Shown piece after piece: positions 3,412 through 32,168 of a stretch of 64,000 nucleotides of DNA. The notes beneath the pieces are model-generated. The model saw only the letters and a list, made by a program, of their open reading frames with translations. It made no database searches and was not told the origin of the DNA. This DNA is from Bacteroidia bacterium (lineage in GTDB: Bacteria > Bacteroidota > Bacteroidia > AKYH767-A > 2013-40CM-41-45). The translations under genes were made by a program, and so were the position numbers. The stretch spans positions 4,364 to 68,363 of the forward strand of contig JBBRAY010000017.1 of assembly GCA_038206355.1 (NCBI GenBank), in the 5' to 3' direction. Within the stretch, counting starts at the first letter, position 1. The number at the start of each line of letters is the position of its first letter.

Positions 3412-3981
3412 ATGAAAAAGAAAATAATGTTTATCAGTCTTGCATTTTGTGCATCGACACTAATTTCATGTGCCCAGGCGAAACATGAACAAAAAAGTAA
3501 AGAATCAAAGACATCCGTTGTCTTATTTGAGAACACAAATGAGGAAGTAAAGACTCAAATCAATAATCTGCTTTCGGATTATATTAAACTAAAAGACGCC
3601 CTTGTAGCCGATGATGCAAAGATGACTGCCGTCAATACAAAAGCATTCCGAAAAACACTTGAGTTGATTGAAATGAATAAAATGACCGGCGCTGAGCATA
3701 CTTACTTTATGACGATGCAACCAAAACTTGATTATGATGCAGAACATATTCAAGGAGCACCGAATATAGATCACATGCGCGAACATTTTGCAACCCTATC
3801 CGACAATTTATTTTCTCTCGTGAAAGCATTTAAAGCAAACAATGGCACTGTTATTTATCTGGATCATTGTCCGATGTACGACAAAGGCGCAAACTGGATC
3901 AGCACTGAAGAGTCGATTAGAAATCCTTATTTCGGAAAACAAATGCCTACCTGTGGCAAGGTGACTGAAACACTGAATTAG
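3412..3981 (+). CDS. Periplasmic lipoprotein, DUF3347-like (a family that recurs in Bacteroidota metal-resistance loci)
   Basis: Lipobox LISCAQ. The body is helical, with a C-terminal HCPMY...MPTCGKV cysteine/His/Met segment. The family assignment is from memory of the DUF3347 architecture, not a search. Confidence 0.45.
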   Translation: MKKKIMFISLAFCASTLISCAQAKHEQKSKESKTSVVLFENTNEEVKTQINNLLSDYIKLKDALVADDAKMTAVNTKAFRKTLELIEMNKMTGAEHTYFMTMQPKLDYDAEHIQGAPNIDHMREHFATLSDNLFSLVKAFKANNGTVIYLDHCPMYDKGANWISTEESIRNPYFGKQMPTCGKVTETLN

Positions 3982-14937: not shown

Positions 14938-15399
14938 ATGAAAAACAAAAAAATGATTGCCGCCATGTTTGCTTCAATGCTCATGCTGGTTGTATGCATT
15001 ACTTCAGGTAATTCTTTTGCACAAACCAAGACCGATTCTACAATGATGAAAGATTGCTGTTTGATGAAGGATGGTAAAATGATGCAAATGATGGACGGCA
15101 AAATGATGCCAATGGAAAAAGACATGACCATGAAAAATGGAACCATGTGTATGACCAATGGCGAATGTGTGATGAAAGATGGAACAAAGATGATGATGAA
15201 AGATGGAGATTGTATGGACATGAGTGGCAAGATGGATAATTGCGCCATGATGATGAAAGGTTCAAAAAGTGGAACCAAAATGGAAAGTGATAAAAAGGAT
15301 GTGGCTATGACTTACACTTGCCCAATGCATCCCGAAGTTACAAGTGACAAAGCAGGGAAATGCCCGAAATGCGGAATGGATCTGATGGAGAAGAAGTAA
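14938..15399 (+). CDS. Secreted Met/Cys-rich copper-binding protein with degenerate MKDG(K)MM repeats and a C-terminal CxxC metal-binding domain
   Basis: Signal peptide. About 75 aa contain >25 Met plus Cys pairs (MMKDCCLMKDGKMMQMMDGKMMPMEKDMTMKNGTMCMTNGECVMKDGTKMMMKDGDCMDMSGKMDNCAMMMKG). The C-terminus (YTCPMHPEVTSDKAGKCPKCGMDL) is the canonical metal-binding motif. Confidence 0.7.
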   Translation: MKNKKMIAAMFASMLMLVVCITSGNSFAQTKTDSTMMKDCCLMKDGKMMQMMDGKMMPMEKDMTMKNGTMCMTNGECVMKDGTKMMMKDGDCMDMSGKMDNCAMMMKGSKSGTKMESDKKDVAMTYTCPMHPEVTSDKAGKCPKCGMDLMEKK

Positions 15400-27516: not shown

Positions 27517-27568
27517 TCTATACCTTTGGCAAATAATTTGACAACAATCAAAATTCAAACAAATAAAA

Positions 27569-28306
27569 ATGGACAATAATCAAAATTGGAATTTCAATGT
27601 TCAGAATCAACCGGGGCTTGCCACACAACCGGTAACAAGAACATTCTTCGCAAGCGTATTTATGTGGATGGGTGTGGCTCTCGGCATCAGCGCCATTACC
27701 GCTTACGTATTCGGAACTGACATGAGTTATATGCAGTACCTTATCAATACTGAAAAGGGCGGTATGTCAGGACTGGGTTATTTTGTCATGTTTGCCCCAC
27801 TCGGACTTGTCCTTCTGATGAGTTTCGGAATCAACAAACTTTCATCAACTGCTTTGATTGGCGTCTTTCTTCTTTATTCAGTGCTGATGGGCATGAGTCT
27901 CAGCTTTATTTTCATGGCCTATACGCTGGGATCTATTTATGGAGTATTCTTCGCCAGTGCTGCCATGTTTGGTGTGATGGCGGTTCTCGGTTATACCACC
28001 AAAACTGACCTTACCAAATTCGGAAGCATCATGATCATGGCTTTGATCGGAATTATCATTGCGGGAGTGATCAATATGTTTATGCGAAGTGACGGACTGA
28101 GTTACATCATCAGTTTTATCTCTGTGATTGTTTTCACAGGCCTTACAGCTTATGACGTTCAGAAGATTAAAAACATCGGCGAGCAAGTTGAAAACGGAAC
28201 AGAAGCTGCAGCCAAGATGGGTATCATGGGAGCACTTACGCTGTATCTTGATTTCATTAACCTGTTCCTGGCGTTGTTGAGATTGTTTGGAAGTAGAAGA
28301 AACTAG
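27569..28306 (+). CDS. Bax-inhibitor-1/YccA-family inner-membrane protein
   Basis: Seven predicted TM helices. The N-terminal Q/N-rich tail and overall BI-1 topology fit the family. 245 aa. Confidence 0.8.
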   Translation: MDNNQNWNFNVQNQPGLATQPVTRTFFASVFMWMGVALGISAITAYVFGTDMSYMQYLINTEKGGMSGLGYFVMFAPLGLVLLMSFGINKLSSTALIGVFLLYSVLMGMSLSFIFMAYTLGSIYGVFFASAAMFGVMAVLGYTTKTDLTKFGSIMIMALIGIIIAGVINMFMRSDGLSYIISFISVIVFTGLTAYDVQKIKNIGEQVENGTEAAAKMGIMGALTLYLDFINLFLALLRLFGSRRN

Positions 28307-28381: not shown

Positions 28382-28416
28382 GCAGTCGCGGATTTTATTT
28401 CGACTTTGCAACTCCT

Positions 28417-28488
28417 GAACTATTGAACTATTGAACTATTGAACTATTGAACTTTTGAACTAATCAACAAATCAACTACTCAACCAAA
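28417..28488. repeat. Tandem 8-bp repeat (GAACTATT x4 perfect, then degenerate GAACTTTT, GAACTAAT, CAACAAAT, CAACTACT, CAACCAAA) abutting the fabD start codon
   Basis: Read directly from the sequence. The 8-nt periodicity runs into the ATG at 28488. Confidence 0.8.
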
Positions 28489-29372
28489 TGAAAGCATACA
28501 TCTTCCCCGGACAAGGCTCACAATTTATCGGAATGGGAAAGGATCTTTACGATTCCTCCACTATTGCCAAAGCGCTTTTTGAAAAAGCAAATTCATTGCT
28601 GGGTTTTAATATTACAGATCTGATGTTCAGCGGAACAGATGAGGACCTGAAACAAACAAAGGTCACACAACCGGCTATCTTTTTGCATTCGATTATTCAG
28701 GCAATAGTCATGGGTGATTCATTGAAACCGGATATGGTTGCCGGTCATTCGCTCGGCGAGTTCTCTGCACTTGTGGCAAATAAAACACTCACATTTGAAA
28801 ATGCATTGTTGCTGGTGAAAGAACGTGCCGGTGCCATGCAGGCAGCATGTGAAGCAAATCCTTCCACAATGGCAGCAGTTCTTAGTCTGGAAGATGCTAT
28901 AGTCGAAAATATTTGCGCTGAAGTATCAGCCTCAGGAGAAATTGTTGTTGCAGCAAATTATAATTGTCCGGGCCAGTTGGTCATCAGTGGAACGATTAAC
29001 GGAGTAAACATAGCCTGCGAAAAATTAAAAGCTGCCGGCGCCCGTCGGGCATTGGTACTACCTGTTGGCGGCGCATTTCATTCTCCATTGATGGAACCTG
29101 CACGCACACGACTTGCCAAAGCCATTGAAGGAACAACATTCTCTGTTCCGGTTTGTCCGGTATATCAAAACGTTACCGCGAAACCGGTAATCAATCCAGA
29201 TGAAATAAAACAAAATCTCATCGCACAACTCACAGCTCCCGTTCGCTGGACGCAAACCATTCAAAACATGATTGCCGACGGCGCAACACAGTTTATTGAA
29301 GTTGGTCCGGGGAAGGTGCTTCAAGGGCTTGTAAAGAAAGTGAATAAAGAGATGGAAGCGGTTTCTGCGTAG
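28488..29372 (+). CDS. fabD: Malonyl-CoA:ACP transacylase
   Basis: MKAYIFPGQGSQFIGMG, the GHSLGEFSAL active-site Ser, and a conserved C-terminal Gln/His. Confidence 0.9.
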   Translation: MKAYIFPGQGSQFIGMGKDLYDSSTIAKALFEKANSLLGFNITDLMFSGTDEDLKQTKVTQPAIFLHSIIQAIVMGDSLKPDMVAGHSLGEFSALVANKTLTFENALLLVKERAGAMQAACEANPSTMAAVLSLEDAIVENICAEVSASGEIVVAANYNCPGQLVISGTINGVNIACEKLKAAGARRALVLPVGGAFHSPLMEPARTRLAKAIEGTTFSVPVCPVYQNVTAKPVINPDEIKQNLIAQLTAPVRWTQTIQNMIADGATQFIEVGPGKVLQGLVKKVNKEMEAVSA

Positions 29373-29373
29373 G

Positions 29374-29470
29374 GGAAGTAGGGAGGGGAAGTCGCAAGCG
29401 GAAGTCAGTAGGGGAAGTCCCAAGGGGAAGTCAAGAGGAGAAGTCGCTAGGCAACCTCTTGCGACTTCTG
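29374..29470. repeat. GA-rich degenerate ~9-mer array (GGGGAAGTC-like units) with an embedded inverted repeat (GAAGTCGCAAG...CTTGCGACTTC)
   Basis: Read directly. It is the reverse-complement counterpart of the TC-rich array downstream of the 29553..29966 gene. Confidence 0.6.
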
Positions 29471-29552
29471 TTAGTGAATTCCGATACTGATCCGGATGCC
29501 AATAAAATAAACTGTATAAATCAGTTGGCGAGCCCGAATCTACCATATAGTT

Positions 29553-29966
29553 TTGGGGTTGATGGAAAAAATATTTACTAAAGAAATTAAGTATAGTCAT
29601 CTGGGATACGAAGGCTTGAATGTTTACCGCTTATCATTCATTTTAGCAATGGATATATTCGAAATTTCTAAAACATTCCCTAAAGAAGAAAAGTATTCCT
29701 TAACAGACCAGGTGCGAAGAAGCTCAAGGTCTATATGCGCAAATCTGGCTGAAGGATATCGTAAGCGCATTTACCCAAAATCATTTTCCGCAAAAATGAT
29801 TGACTGTGCCGGAGAATGTTCAGAAACTTTGGTTCACTTGAAATTTGCCCATTGTTGTAATTATATTACCTCGGAAATTTTAACTTACTTTGAAACAAGA
29901 TACGATGAGGTGGGGAAAATCCTCAACTACATGTATCAACATCCTGAAAAATTTGCACCGAAATGA
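29553..29966 (+). CDS. Four-helix-bundle protein (the 23S-rRNA-intervening-sequence / 'S23 ribosomal'-like family)
   Basis: 137 aa. YRLSFILAMDIFEISKTFPKEEKYSLTDQVRRSSRSICANLAEGYRK matches this family's conserved core. The gene is bracketed by inverted repeat arrays. Confidence 0.75.
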   Translation: MGLMEKIFTKEIKYSHLGYEGLNVYRLSFILAMDIFEISKTFPKEEKYSLTDQVRRSSRSICANLAEGYRKRIYPKSFSAKMIDCAGECSETLVHLKFAHCCNYITSEILTYFETRYDEVGKILNYMYQHPEKFAPK

Positions 29967-30010
29967 AATGGTAACATTAATTAAAACTAAAAATTCACGG
30001 CTATTGGATT

Positions 30011-30222
30011 TGACTCCCTCCTTCCGCTCCCTACTACCTACTAATCGGCTGCTGTTCTTCACTTCCTCCTTCCGCTCCCTACTCGCGACCACTCGGCTGC
30101 TGGATTTAACTCCCTCCTTCCGCTCCCTACTTGCGACCACTCGGCTGCTGGATTTACCTCCCTCCTTCCGCTCCCTACTCGCGACCACTCGGCTGCTGGA
30201 TTTAACTCCCTCCTTCCATCTA
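30011..30222. repeat. Tandem ~48-bp repeat, about 4.3 copies (unit TCCCTCCTTCCGCTCCCTACTCGCGACCACTCGGCTGCTGGATTTAAC)
   Basis: Read directly, with periods of 48, 48, 49 and 47 nt. It has open frames in several phases only because the unit length is a multiple of 3. Confidence 0.85.
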
Positions 30223-30241
30223 AAATACTAATCAACAACAA

Positions 30242-31771
30242 GTGCCAATCATAAACTCGATACTCTCCTGGTGGATGAAAAAACGAATGCACCAGGTGGA
30301 GCTTTTCATCAAGTACCCGCATGAGGTGCAGGAGGACTGGCGTGTGCGGTTGATTCAGGCTGCTAAGATGACGGAATGGGGACGCAAATATGACTACTCA
30401 ACTATACGGTCGCTGAAAAATTTTAAAGAACGTGTACCGGTTAGCAATTATGATTCGGTTAAACCATTTATTAAACGGATCATGCATGGCGAACAGAATA
30501 TTTTATGGCCCAGCGATATCAAATGGTTTGCAAAATCTTCCGGAACTACATCCGATAAAAGTAAATTCATTCCTGTCAGCAATGAAGCGATGGAGGAATG
30601 TCATTTCAAAGGAGGAAAAGATTGCGTTTCATTTTATTGTACAAACAACCCCGATACAAAAATATTTACAGGAAAGGCGCTGCTACTCGGCGGAAGTCAC
30701 CAGATCAACACTTTCAGTAATGAATCTTTTTATGGTGACATCTCCGCTGTACTCATGCAGAACCTCCCCTTCTGGATACAGTTCCTTCGAACACCTGATT
30801 TATCCATTGCCCTCATGGATAAGTGGGAAGAAAAAATTGAACGACTTGCCGATGCTACTATCAATGAAAACGTAACCAACATCAGTGGTGTTCCTACCTG
30901 GACGCTTGTGCTGGCGAAACATGTGATGGAGATGACCGGTAAAAGCAACCTCCTCGAAATATGGCCAAACCTGGAATTGTTTATCCATGGTGCTGTGAGT
31001 TTCACTCCTTACCGCGACCAGTTTGCAAAACTGATTCCTTCGGAGAAAATGAGTTACCTGGAAACCTATAATGCCTCAGAAGGTTTTTTTGGTATTCAGG
31101 ATCAGCCACGCAGCGATGAGATGTTGCTGATGCTCGACTATGGTATTTACTATGAGTTCATGCCGATGGAAGAATACGGAAAAGATTTCCCTGATACCCT
31201 TTCACTCGAACAGGTGGAGCTCAATAAAAATTATGCTGTCGTCATTTCCACCAATGCCGGACTGTGGAGATACCTCATCGGCGATACCGTGAGGTTCACT
31301 TCTTTGAATCCATACCGGATAAAAATTACAGGACGTACTAAATTATTCATCAATGCCTTTGGCGAAGAGGTGATGATTGAAAATACTGACAATGCTGTAC
31401 ATATTGCCTGTGAGAAAACAGAAGCACTGATCAGGGATTATACTGTTGCTCCTGTTTATTTTTCTGAAAGTGAAAACGGTGCCCATGAATGGCTAATCGA
31501 ATTTGAAAAAGCACCTGACAACCTTGACTACTTTATTGAAACGCTTGATACTGCTCTCAAATCACTCAACAGCGATTACGAGGCAAAACGGTATAAAAAT
31601 ATGGCGCTCAGAAAACCAATACTAAAGGTACTTCCTGAAAATACATTCTATTCATGGATGAAGAGCAAAGGAAAACTGGGCGGACAGCACAAAGTACCAA
31701 GATTGAGTAATGATCGTAAATTTGTGGAGGAGATTCTTCATATGCTGGATCAACAGAATACTAAGGTATAG
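30242..31771 (+). CDS. GH3-family (auxin-responsive-promoter-like) acyl-acid amido synthetase homolog
   Basis: 509 aa. The N-terminus (LFIKYPHEVQEDWRVRLIQAA...) and the adenylate-forming GH3 architecture (SSGTTSDKSKFIPVS, YNASEGFFGIQD) fit the family. Confidence 0.8.
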   Translation: MPIINSILSWWMKKRMHQVELFIKYPHEVQEDWRVRLIQAAKMTEWGRKYDYSTIRSLKNFKERVPVSNYDSVKPFIKRIMHGEQNILWPSDIKWFAKSSGTTSDKSKFIPVSNEAMEECHFKGGKDCVSFYCTNNPDTKIFTGKALLLGGSHQINTFSNESFYGDISAVLMQNLPFWIQFLRTPDLSIALMDKWEEKIERLADATINENVTNISGVPTWTLVLAKHVMEMTGKSNLLEIWPNLELFIHGAVSFTPYRDQFAKLIPSEKMSYLETYNASEGFFGIQDQPRSDEMLLMLDYGIYYEFMPMEEYGKDFPDTLSLEQVELNKNYAVVISTNAGLWRYLIGDTVRFTSLNPYRIKITGRTKLFINAFGEEVMIENTDNAVHIACEKTEALIRDYTVAPVYFSESENGAHEWLIEFEKAPDNLDYFIETLDTALKSLNSDYEAKRYKNMALRKPILKVLPENTFYSWMKSKGKLGGQHKVPRLSNDRKFVEEILHMLDQQNTKV

Positions 31772-31804
31772 GAATGAGGATTGAGTATTGAAGTGGGAAT
31801 GATA

Positions 31805-32125
31805 AGTCAGAAGTTAAAAGTTAAAAGTTACGAATTACGAGTTTCAAATTGAGGACGAATAAATGACCAATGACGGCTGCTCCTTTCCCCACGTTCACCC
31901 CTTCCCCATAGCCATCGGGACCTGAAGGGGGCATTCGCACAGAATATGATATACAATTTTGATTTTGTACTCGATTATAATCCCGTGAACTAATGACTTA
32001 ATGACGGCTGCTTCTTCTTAAGTCAAAACGCAAAAGTTAAAAGTTACAAGCTACGAATTACGAGTTTCAAATTTACAATGAGCAAATGACTAATGACTTA
32101 ATGACGGCTGCTTCAATGACGGTTG
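31805..32125. repeat. Intergenic repeat family: two ~80-bp copies (AAAAGTTAAAAGTTAC.AG.TACGAATTACGAGTTTCAAATT...AATGAC.AATGACGGCTGCT.C) plus extra copies of the AATGACTTAATGACGGCTGCTTC module, flanking a CCCCTTC...GAAGGGG hairpin
   Basis: Read directly. There is no ORF of 60 aa or more in this 400-bp gap. Confidence 0.6.
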
Positions 32126-32168
32126 TTTCAGCAATACTCAAGACGTAAATTAAAATTTATATTAAAAA

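Follow-up and report, generated by a model that had tools for sequence, protein, structure and literature searches.

The junction between fabD and a GH3-family gene in the Bacteroidia contig JBBRAY010000017.1 carries a gene for a four-helix-bundle (4HB) protein enclosed by two tandem-repeat arrays that are complementary to each other. We analyzed this region within a window of 64 kb, by which we mean the whole stretch of 64,000 nucleotides. Our preferred reading, held with moderate confidence, is that the region is a promoter-less cassette of the intervening sequence (IVS) type known from 23S rRNA: a 4HB gene between complementary repeat arms, carried on a read-through transcript that would be a substrate for RNase III, with arms that have expanded by slippage. 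The cassette sits exactly where the fabD stop meets the GH3 start, and its parts are as follows.

28488..29372, + strand: fabD (malonyl-CoA:ACP transacylase), the upstream host gene (PF00698, E = 4.9e-40)
29369..29459, + strand: 5′ arm, a purine-rich array with a period of 13 nt (Tandem Repeats Finder, TRF, and a repeat finder)
29455..29482, + strand: reverse-complement segment CCTCTTGCGACTTCTGTTAGTGAATTCC, local hairpin partner of the last 5′-array units (inverted repeats I2, I4 and I21)
29483..29561, + strand: spacer of 79 nt between the 5′ arm and the open reading frame (ORF), alignable with the orthologous locus L172
29562..29966, + strand: 4HB gene, 134 aa (PF05635 / TIGR02436)
29967..29997, + strand: AT-rich spacer of 31 nt from the 4HB stop to the 3′ array (read from the sequence)
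29998..30222, + strand: 3′ arm, a pyrimidine-rich 48-bp array of 4.6 copies (TRF score 335)
30242..31771, + strand: GH3-family adenylate-forming enzyme, the downstream host gene, GTG start, MPIINSILSWW... (PF03321, PF23571 and PF23572)

A first-pass annotation made from the letters alone had described a 4HB gene between fabD and a GH3 gene, bracketed by inverted repeat arrays. All of its elements were found at, or within a few bases of, the positions it gave, and the matches to PF05635, PF00698 and PF03321 bear out the identities of the three genes, which lie on the same strand. The fabD stop codon (TAG, 29370–29372) falls inside the first unit of the 5′ array, and only 20 nt separate the end of the 3′ arm from the GH3 start, whose placement at GTG 30242 is supported by comparison with the related loci L165, L004 and L002.

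The 5′ array consists of about five to six units, each with a GGGGAAGTC 9-mer core and four variable nucleotides. Six GGGGAAGTC-like 9-mers (at most one mismatch) lie at 29372–29445 with an exact spacing of 13 nt; the window holds 15 such 9-mers against 7.5 expected. TRF called the array at period 13 with 4.8 copies, together with higher-order periods of 26 and 39. The palindrome that had been noticed within the array is real: GAAGTCGCAAGCGG (29388–29401) pairs with CCTCTTGCGACTTC (29455–29468), with 93% of 14 nt complementary (I21). A hairpin over 29455–29482 appears in the minimum free energy fold, and it can be an alternative to long-range pairing of the arms or nested in it. TRF placed the 3′ array at 29998–30217 (87% matches) with the period of 48 that had been annotated, at 4.6 copies rather than the roughly 4.3 proposed. 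Each 48-nt unit contains CTCCCTCCTTCCGCTCCCTACT, which is complementary to the 5′ array, and a CGGCTGCTGGATTT segment, and the 22-mer core CTCCCTCCTTCCGCTCCCTACT occurs four times in the window against none expected. Each of the two arrays is found at a single place within the window.

The two arms are able to pair. AAGTAGGGAGGGGAAG (29376–29391) is complementary to CTTCCGCTCCCTACTT over 15 of 16 positions, a match repeated in every 48-nt unit; a complementarity score this high was reached by 1 of 500 shuffles, in agreement with the earlier view that the downstream unit is roughly the reverse complement of the upstream motif. The cassette thus has complementary termini, in four units of the 3′ array, able to form a stem that encloses the ORF. 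Folding was assessed by cofolding of defined segments, since duplex prediction on long flanks gave uninterpretable, huge interior loops. When 29366–29412 was cofolded with each of the four full 48-nt units, the two segments formed about 30 bp of imperfect duplex, with energies of −42 to −46 kcal/mol.

The 4HB ORF runs from an ATG at 29562 to a stop codon ending at 29966 and is identical to the listed ORF P0001. It matches PF05635 over profile positions 2–105 of 106 (E = 1.6e-28, 99.4 bits against a cut-off of 33.8) and TIGR02436 at 94.4 bits against a cut-off of 24, and it belongs to the family labeled ‘23S rRNA intervening sequence protein’ or four helix bundle protein. The closest entry in the Protein Data Bank is 2GSC (E = 1.5e-8), and the solved member of the family forms a toroidal homopentamer (Lin et al., 2006, cited in PMC4990558). 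Across the window, L004 and L002 the gene is under purifying selection, with a proportion of nonsynonymous differences (pN) of 0.13–0.18 against a synonymous proportion (pS) of about 0.75–0.76, or a pN/pS of about 0.2.

ORF-bearing intervening sequences in 23S rRNA were reportedly described by Ralph and McClelland in 1993. The window cassette resembles the IVSs of Leptospira, Coxiella burnetii, Xanthomonas and Brucella in carrying an S23p / PF05635 ORF in the sense orientation of the host transcript, in placing this ORF within complementary termini with tandem repeats beside it (heptamers in the IVSs, with a copy number that varies between strains), in being sporadically present and absent among relatives, and in having ORF-less miniature forms. 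The IVS of Coxiella burnetii combines a 28-bp terminal stem with an ORF of the same family (Warrier et al., 2016, PMC4990558); its tandem GACAGAT heptamers number two or three depending on the strain, and RNase III cuts at the first of them (PMC4990558). Among the homologous loci that we fetched (designated by L numbers), L152, L154, L157, L158, L160 and L164 lie inside Rfam-confirmed 23S rRNA, and most of the 23S rRNA loci have complementary heptamer arms abutting the ORF, such as ACAGAAG/TCTTCTG and GGAATCA/CCTGATT. The ORF family, stem and heptamers of the Coxiella IVS and the arms of these 23S loci together lead us to read the window unit as a probable IVS-type cassette in an mRNA operon, and by this analogy its architecture matches that of an ORF-bearing 23S rRNA IVS rather than that of a miniature inverted-repeat transposable element (MITE).

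The likeness has limits. The window cassette lies between two protein-coding genes and not in the loop of helix 9, 25 or 45 of 23S rRNA; a search of the whole 64 kb window with Rfam at gathering thresholds gave no match to rRNA or any other family. Its arms are much longer than the two to five heptamers of the rRNA forms and have periods of 13 and 48 nt, not 7, whereas the homologous loci mostly have a period of 7 (the units of L172 measure about 13 nt, and L174 has just one copy). RNase III excision without religation has precedents in Coxiella and other rRNA IVSs and is a prediction for the window cassette. Finally, the ORF of the Coxiella IVS has been reported to be decaying, in contrast to the clear purifying selection on the window protein.

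Arms of this kind recur around 4HB genes in general. We fetched 160 loci encoding relatives of the protein, a sample biased toward relatives of the window's own 4HB subfamily. After removal of redundancy 134 remained, and 163 other genes at these loci served as controls; heuristics fixed the gene starts, and the control ORFs came from mechanical calling. Tandem repeats were present upstream in 66% of the 4HB loci against 21% of controls, downstream in 75% against 18%, and on both sides in 51% against 3.7%. At least five inverted 8-mers were shared between the flanks in 57% of 4HB loci and in 4.9% of controls; for at least five direct 8-mers the figures were 13% and 7%. The repeats have a polarity: at least three CAGT occurred in the upstream 150 nt of 45% of 4HB loci, and at least three ACTG in the downstream 150 nt of 51%, each against 1% of controls, and the reverse arrangement (ACTG-type upstream, CAGT-type downstream) was seen in 3% of loci. 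A period of 7 nt was the most common, in 49 arrays upstream and 53 downstream; next came 6, 8 and 13/14. GA/CT-rich arm variants akin to those of the window were found at L077, L060, L065 and L073. Of 188 short-period arrays in the fetched sequence, 140 lay no more than 250 nt from a 4HB gene; such zones make up 18% of that sequence. Several of the arrays away from 4HB genes were paired arrays without an ORF that fold as long hairpins, with z scores down to −10.6.

The complementarity seen in the window is also general. In local alignments of the upstream flank with the reverse complement of the downstream flank, 69% of loci exceeded the 95th percentile of controls and 49% the control maximum. 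Where both sides had the same 6–8 nt period (46 loci), the upstream unit was the reverse complement of the downstream unit, with at most one mismatch, in 37. Duplex energies, for which the flanks of other genes in the same loci served as control, were better for the sense than for the antisense strand by a mean of 5.3 kcal/mol (Wilcoxon p = 5e-6); an earlier control of non-cognate arm pairs was dropped because it was inflated by the CAGT/ACTG units that many loci share. In 109 of 120 loci (91%; baseline 78%) the upstream neighbor pointed the same way as the 4HB gene, a Bacteroidetes −7 box lay within 40 nt upstream of 2 of 134 4HB genes as against 22 of 163 controls, and the median gap from the 4HB gene to either neighbor was about 76 nt. 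At the window locus itself, a scan for sigma-70 promoters and terminators, made without a Bacteroidetes promoter model, returned none between fabD and GH3.

The same arms were found in five of the six plasmid-borne 4HB genes of cultured cyanobacteria that we inspected, all of them Nostocales; Nostoc punctiforme NPUN_RS36250, for example, has (AGCAGGGG)n upstream and (CCCCTGCT)n downstream. An exception to the inverted layout is L180 (Oscillatoria nigro-viridis pOSC7112.02), with G-rich (GGAGAGTGG)n arrays in the same orientation on both flanks. A scan of viral contigs found no relatives. The rRNA operon of L158 holds, besides an ORF-bearing IVS, two ORF-less heptamer hairpins (1220–1330 and 2200–2315), one in the 16S–23S spacer and one in 23S rRNA, with (GGAAUCA)n/(CUGAUUC)n stems of 30–40 bp and z scores of −8.8 and −10.6.

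The first-pass annotation had interpreted the arrays as the termini of a small non-autonomous element, from a mobile or insertion-prone gene family, inserted between fabD and GH3. What stands of this is a discrete block of about 870 bp with complementary array ends; the arms are not conserved inverted repeats of the transposase type, and neither a target-site duplication nor a transposase was seen. Relatives' junctions, gathered through exact-protein look-ups of 4HB and GH3 homologues, allowed the idea to be examined further; an exact-sequence look-up of the window fabD gave no match. The junction occurs in five states: empty, an ORF-less hairpin, array remnants, a short-arm cassette, and the expanded arrays of the window. 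It is empty in L165, whose GH3 is 90% identical (fabD TAA, 6 nt, ATG), and in L169/L170 (fabD TGA, 7 nt, ATG). The block of about 870 bp is thus missing from some close relatives, the point that the annotation had proposed to check, and the interval differs in structure among them. L171 has a hairpin without an ORF (GTTTACG GTTTACC GTTTACT GTTTCGG, then TAAACTG TAAACCG CAAACTG TAAACAA; z = −4.7) and, one junction further on, after GH3, a complete 4HB cassette; cassettes of this kind do sit at different junctions in different lineages. L166/L167 and L168 retain array remnants and no ORF. Complete short-arm cassettes are present in L172/L173, L174/L175, L004 and the outgroup L002, with 4HB amino acid identities of 82%, 80%, 77% and 69%, respectively.

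A recent insertion does not fit this distribution. L172, L174, L004 and L002 all carry the gene at this junction. Across the window, L004 and L002, the 4HB gene and the host genes alike have reached saturation at synonymous sites, and the 4HB identity tracks that of fabD and Bax1-I. Saturated synonymous sites together with low pN mark the 4HB gene as an old, selected resident of this junction, and the comparison of genomes shows that the cassette has long resided there and is absent from some lineages. Ancestral presence followed by loss is the more parsimonious history; repeated gain at the same junction is also possible.

Arm sequences have turned over completely between the orthologues. L174/L175 have one copy homologous to the window 48-mer (GGATTTGACTCCTTCCTTCAGCTACCTACT), and the arms of L172 comprise one or two GGAGGAAGTC units on the upstream side and about five CTTCCTCCYGAC units on the downstream side; with a single 48-mer in L174 and only one or two upstream units in L172, the window arrays are therefore lineage-specific amplifications. 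The complementarity outlived the turnover in part, its score being reached by 0 of 500 shuffles in L004 and 6 of 500 in L002, beside the 1 of 500 in the window.

These comparisons bear on the possibility that the unit is a non-autonomous DNA transposon, in which the inverted arrays would be terminal inverted repeats recognized by a transposase encoded elsewhere and the 4HB gene a passenger. Such an element would explain the presence/absence polymorphism at one junction (empty in L165, L169 and L170; filled in the window, L172, L174, L004 and L002), the cassettes at different junctions in related genomes (L171), and the large, phylogenetically scattered 4HB family (5722 homologues in one search and more than 596 genomic matches). 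It would also fit the ORF-less miniature versions, which recall the relation of MITEs to transposons, and a mobile origin of IVSs has long been suspected (PMC4990558). MITEs share with the cassettes a small size and inverted ends, but the ends of window-type cassettes are not conserved between copies: no terminal sequence recurs between loci or orthologues, except for a short CAGT/ACTG core that is itself absent in the window, and the 48-mer core was found only at the window locus (and in L001, which is identical to the region) among the rest of the window and the other fetched loci. No target-site duplication was visible on comparing the window with the empty sites L165 and L169, at a divergence so high that synonymous sites are saturated. 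No transposase is adjacent, no relatives were found in the viral contigs, and the cassette has been inherited vertically at fabD–GH3 beyond synonymous saturation. A DNA transposon requires neither the strong orientation bias relative to the upstream gene nor the lack of promoter boxes, and this orientation bias also sets the cassettes apart from MITEs. We consider a transposon of this sort unlikely; mobility of the IVS-type cassette is something we infer.

The polarity of the arms raises a second alternative, namely that the arrays are independent cis-acting single-strand repeats whose complementarity reflects a common origin. A translational or post-transcriptional regulator, or the 4HB oligomer, could bind them, or they could be leader and trailer repeats of the TAACTGA or short tandemly repeated repetitive (STRR) type. 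Cyanobacterial STRR heptamer sequences are said to go back to Mazel and colleagues in 1990; to our knowledge their description mentions no 4HB gene, paired inverted arrays or rRNA IVSs. Intergenic direct repeats of the TAACTGA heptamer occur in Beggiatoaceae, Cyanobacteria and Bacteroidetes, mostly a few nucleotides upstream of start codons, and a translational role has been proposed for them (MacGregor, 2015, PMC4679880). Both types resemble the arms described here in being intergenic tandem repeats of about 7 nt, patchy in Bacteroidetes, Cyanobacteria and others and of unexplained origin, in having ACTG/CAGT units, and in often closely preceding a start codon, in the way that the 3′ arm precedes GH3. 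The arrays at 4HB loci differ from both in forming complementary pairs around one gene family, and PMC4679880 contains none of the terms S23, four-helix or IVS and mentions neither a link to 4HB genes nor paired inverted arrays.

Single-strand repeats would also account for the strict polarity (45–51% against 3%), which suggests that the sequence is read and not structure alone, for the quarter of arrays that are not beside a 4HB gene, and for the TGAACTAT array of 5.9 copies upstream of fabD, where there is no 4HB gene. The ring oligomers formed by 4HB proteins (Lin et al., 2006, as cited in PMC4990558) would suit repeated sites. On the other hand, units that differ from locus to locus are nonetheless reverse complements in 37 of 46 loci, which is hard to obtain without pairing or concerted evolution; the ORF-less versions are perfect hairpins, with z scores down to −10.6; and the rRNA versions are experimentally proven stems. 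We regard single-strand repeats as an unlikely explanation. The nucleic-acid binding of Avd, a protein with a distantly homologous four-helix-bundle fold, would also be in keeping with it.

Avd is a basic pentamer that binds reverse transcriptase and RNA or nucleic acid. We rejected a diversity-generating retroelement (DGR): although the folds are related, the window protein scored below both curated Avd cut-offs (PF22296, 27.8 bits against 40, E = 3.8e-6; NF033474, 20.7 bits against 80, E = 3.9e-4), the neighboring genes (GTP cyclohydrolase I, Bax1-I, fabD and GH3), to which the screen for a reverse transcriptase was confined, encode none, and no template/variable repeat pair was seen.

Inverted repeats around a segment of 400–600 bp are the signature of an inverton, and invertons are common in Bacteroidota. 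The arrays might accordingly be recombination sites of an invertible DNA switch, the 4HB segment flipping relative to the fabD promoter; the window has this layout, and inversion would, by reasoning, keep the polarity of the arms relative to the gene. Yet 91% of cassettes are co-oriented with the upstream gene in the assemblies, and all five orthologues at fabD–GH3 share one orientation. The arms are arrays of variable length and not discrete core sites, the window has no recombinase next to the cassette, and cassettes of this design also sit in 23S rRNA genes, which an inversion would destroy. We find an invertible switch very improbable. Chance low-complexity sequence or slippage debris unrelated to the gene could be argued from the free variation in array length, from the dispensability of the whole cassette in L165 and L169, and from a whole-unit fold that is not significant (see below). 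It is effectively refuted by all the enrichments over control genes and by recurrence across phyla and in rRNA.

For an IVS-type cassette we propose the following course of events. The cassette would be transcribed by read-through from fabD, and the arms, whose pairing potential was computed above, would pair in this transcript and loop out the ORF. Because the arms are repetitive, pairing is possible in several registers, which would tolerate slippage. Following the precedent of rRNA IVSs, the double-strand-specific RNase III would then act on the imperfect duplex of about 30 bp. Its cuts would free the 4HB message and part the fabD message from that of GH3, with ends at the base of the stem. 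A stem base flush with the 6–7 nt junction would either rejoin the fabD stop and the GH3 start or create a new 5′ end for GH3. In this process the 13-bp and 48-bp arrays would be products of slippage or unequal exchange, expanded from arms that comparison shows to be short or single-copy in sister lineages.

Several observations weigh against this proposal. The 881-nt whole unit folded no better than its shuffles on either strand (z = −0.95 and −0.93), a z score that is uninformative because shuffles of GA-rich and CU-rich sequence pair equally well, and the longest near-perfect helix in the window cassette is 16 bp. Arm complementarity is marginal in L172 (22 of 500 shuffles), and in L174 no Watson–Crick complementarity above chance was found (296 of 500); in the survey, 31% of loci were at or below the control 95th percentile in the flank alignment. 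G–U-compatible mismatches, at 90 in the sense and 66 in the antisense direction, are only marginally in favor of RNA pairing (p = 0.065). Strict CAGT/ACTG polarity is not needed for a mere stem and hints at sequence-specific recognition or simple common descent. TAGTTTTG (29548–29555) conforms to TAnnTTTG, the −7 box of Bacteroidetes promoters that is otherwise rare upstream of 4HB genes; its end lies 6 nt from the 4HB ATG, a position that would imply a leaderless or very short-leader transcript. If it is a real promoter, the 4HB gene's own transcript would exclude the 5′ arm. Pairing and RNase III cleavage have experimental precedents in rRNA cassettes; for cassettes outside rRNA, transcription, pairing and cleavage are predictions.

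Several features beside the cassette touch on its parts. In L002, AGTATGGAGTTG in the 5′ arm (2944–2955, approximate) is a perfect 12-nt complement of GH3 codons 4–7, CAACTCCATACT (3511–3522), and L004 has a weaker match between arm and GH3 start, with matching substitutions at the same place; judged from sequence, the 5′ arm might also pair with the initiation region of the downstream gene. L001 (a Logan contig of 1354 nt), the only other assembly of the exact locus, ends within the second 48-bp unit, and many close homologues lie on contigs some 1 kb long; short-read assembly probably breaks at the repeat arms.

Two candidate readings of the arrays were set aside. ORFs spanning them are mechanical calls only, which speaks against coding repeats, and a clustered regularly interspaced short palindromic repeats (CRISPR) array was rejected since the 48-bp unit recurs over its whole length (87% matches) and no unique spacers separate the copies. 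A screen with PADLOC defense models gave no match. In the FLSHclust CRISPR survey, ‘23S rRNA IVP’ appears in a figure legend on novel CRISPR-linked associations (PMC10910872). Arms flanking 4HB genes may be mistaken for CRISPR arrays, which could explain spurious “CRISPR-associated” calls.

The genes around the locus encode GTP cyclohydrolase I and Bax1-I in addition to fabD and GH3. Directly 5′ of the fabD start (28488) lies the tandem array TGAACTAT (5.9 copies, 94% matches, 28416–28462), followed by AACAAATC-like units; this array region (28410–28489) is preceded by a terminator-like hairpin and a conserved CTTTGCAA box. L165 and L004 have a shorter periodic (A)ATCAAC leader at the matching position, and the array resembles the start-codon-proximal heptamer repeats of MacGregor (2015, PMC4679880). 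Downstream of GH3, a spacer of 397 nt (31772–32168) contains no ORF, where in relatives the flanking genes abut or overlap. It holds a 67-nt direct repeat (31808–31874 / 32031–32097, 85%), ACTAATGACTTAATGACGGCTGCTTC copies, mini heptamer arrays (AAGTTAA in 2.9 copies) and a C-rich stretch, CCTTTCCCCACGTTCACCCCTTCCCC, whose complement is GGGGAA-rich like the 5′-arm units; the 4HB cassette of L171 lies at the matching junction. This spacer may be a relic or an ORF-less relative of the same type of element. The 8-mer CGGCTGCT occurs 11 times in the window against 0.8 expected, with four copies in the 48-bp units and three in the GH3-downstream spacer (30046–30197, 31874–32112 and elsewhere). Further repeats in the window are a 16–17-nt periodic array, AATTGGACAACAATCAA, of 3.4 copies at 27535–27590, over an intergenic region and the start of the Bax1-I gene (27569), and two adjoining tandem arrays of 24 nt (ATGAAGGACGGCAAAATGATGCAA) and 21 nt (ATGAAAAATGGAACAATGTGTG) at 15064–15207, possibly coding repeats.

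IVSs that combine an S23p ORF with inverted termini and heptamers, and that RNase III excises, were known already, as were intergenic heptamer arrays, the latter unexplained. A literature search that left most subscription journals out of reach found no paper linking 4HB genes outside rRNA to flanking repeat arrays. Three oddities have stood without explanation: the nature and origin of rRNA IVSs, the abundance of the IVS-protein family outside rRNA, and intergenic heptanucleotide arrays. Our comparison suggests that rRNA IVSs, IVS-protein genes outside rRNA and heptamer arrays may be facets of one type of element. As a tentative extension, which we hold to be possible and no better than that, 4HB genes in complementary tandem-repeat arms would form a single phylum-spanning class of promoter-less cassettes that colonizes rRNA helices, operon junctions and plasmids. 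The 23S IVSs, many heptamer arrays (TAACTGA and possibly STRR) and the ORF-less hairpins would then be its forms or relics, and the Avd-like protein would act on the arms, for example by processing or protecting RNA, or by propagating the cassette through RNA with the help of a reverse transcriptase, as in DGRs. Cultured strains that bear the cassette exist, such as Nostoc punctiforme PCC 73102 with plasmid pNPUN02 (NPUN_RS36250) and, among the Bacteroidota that we sampled, Flavobacterium phragmitis and Maribacter aquimaris, and in such strains RNase III-dependent processing, polymorphism of array length and binding of the protein to the repeats are testable predictions. A cassette placed at an operon junction should affect the expression of the genes that flank it, here fabD and GH3.

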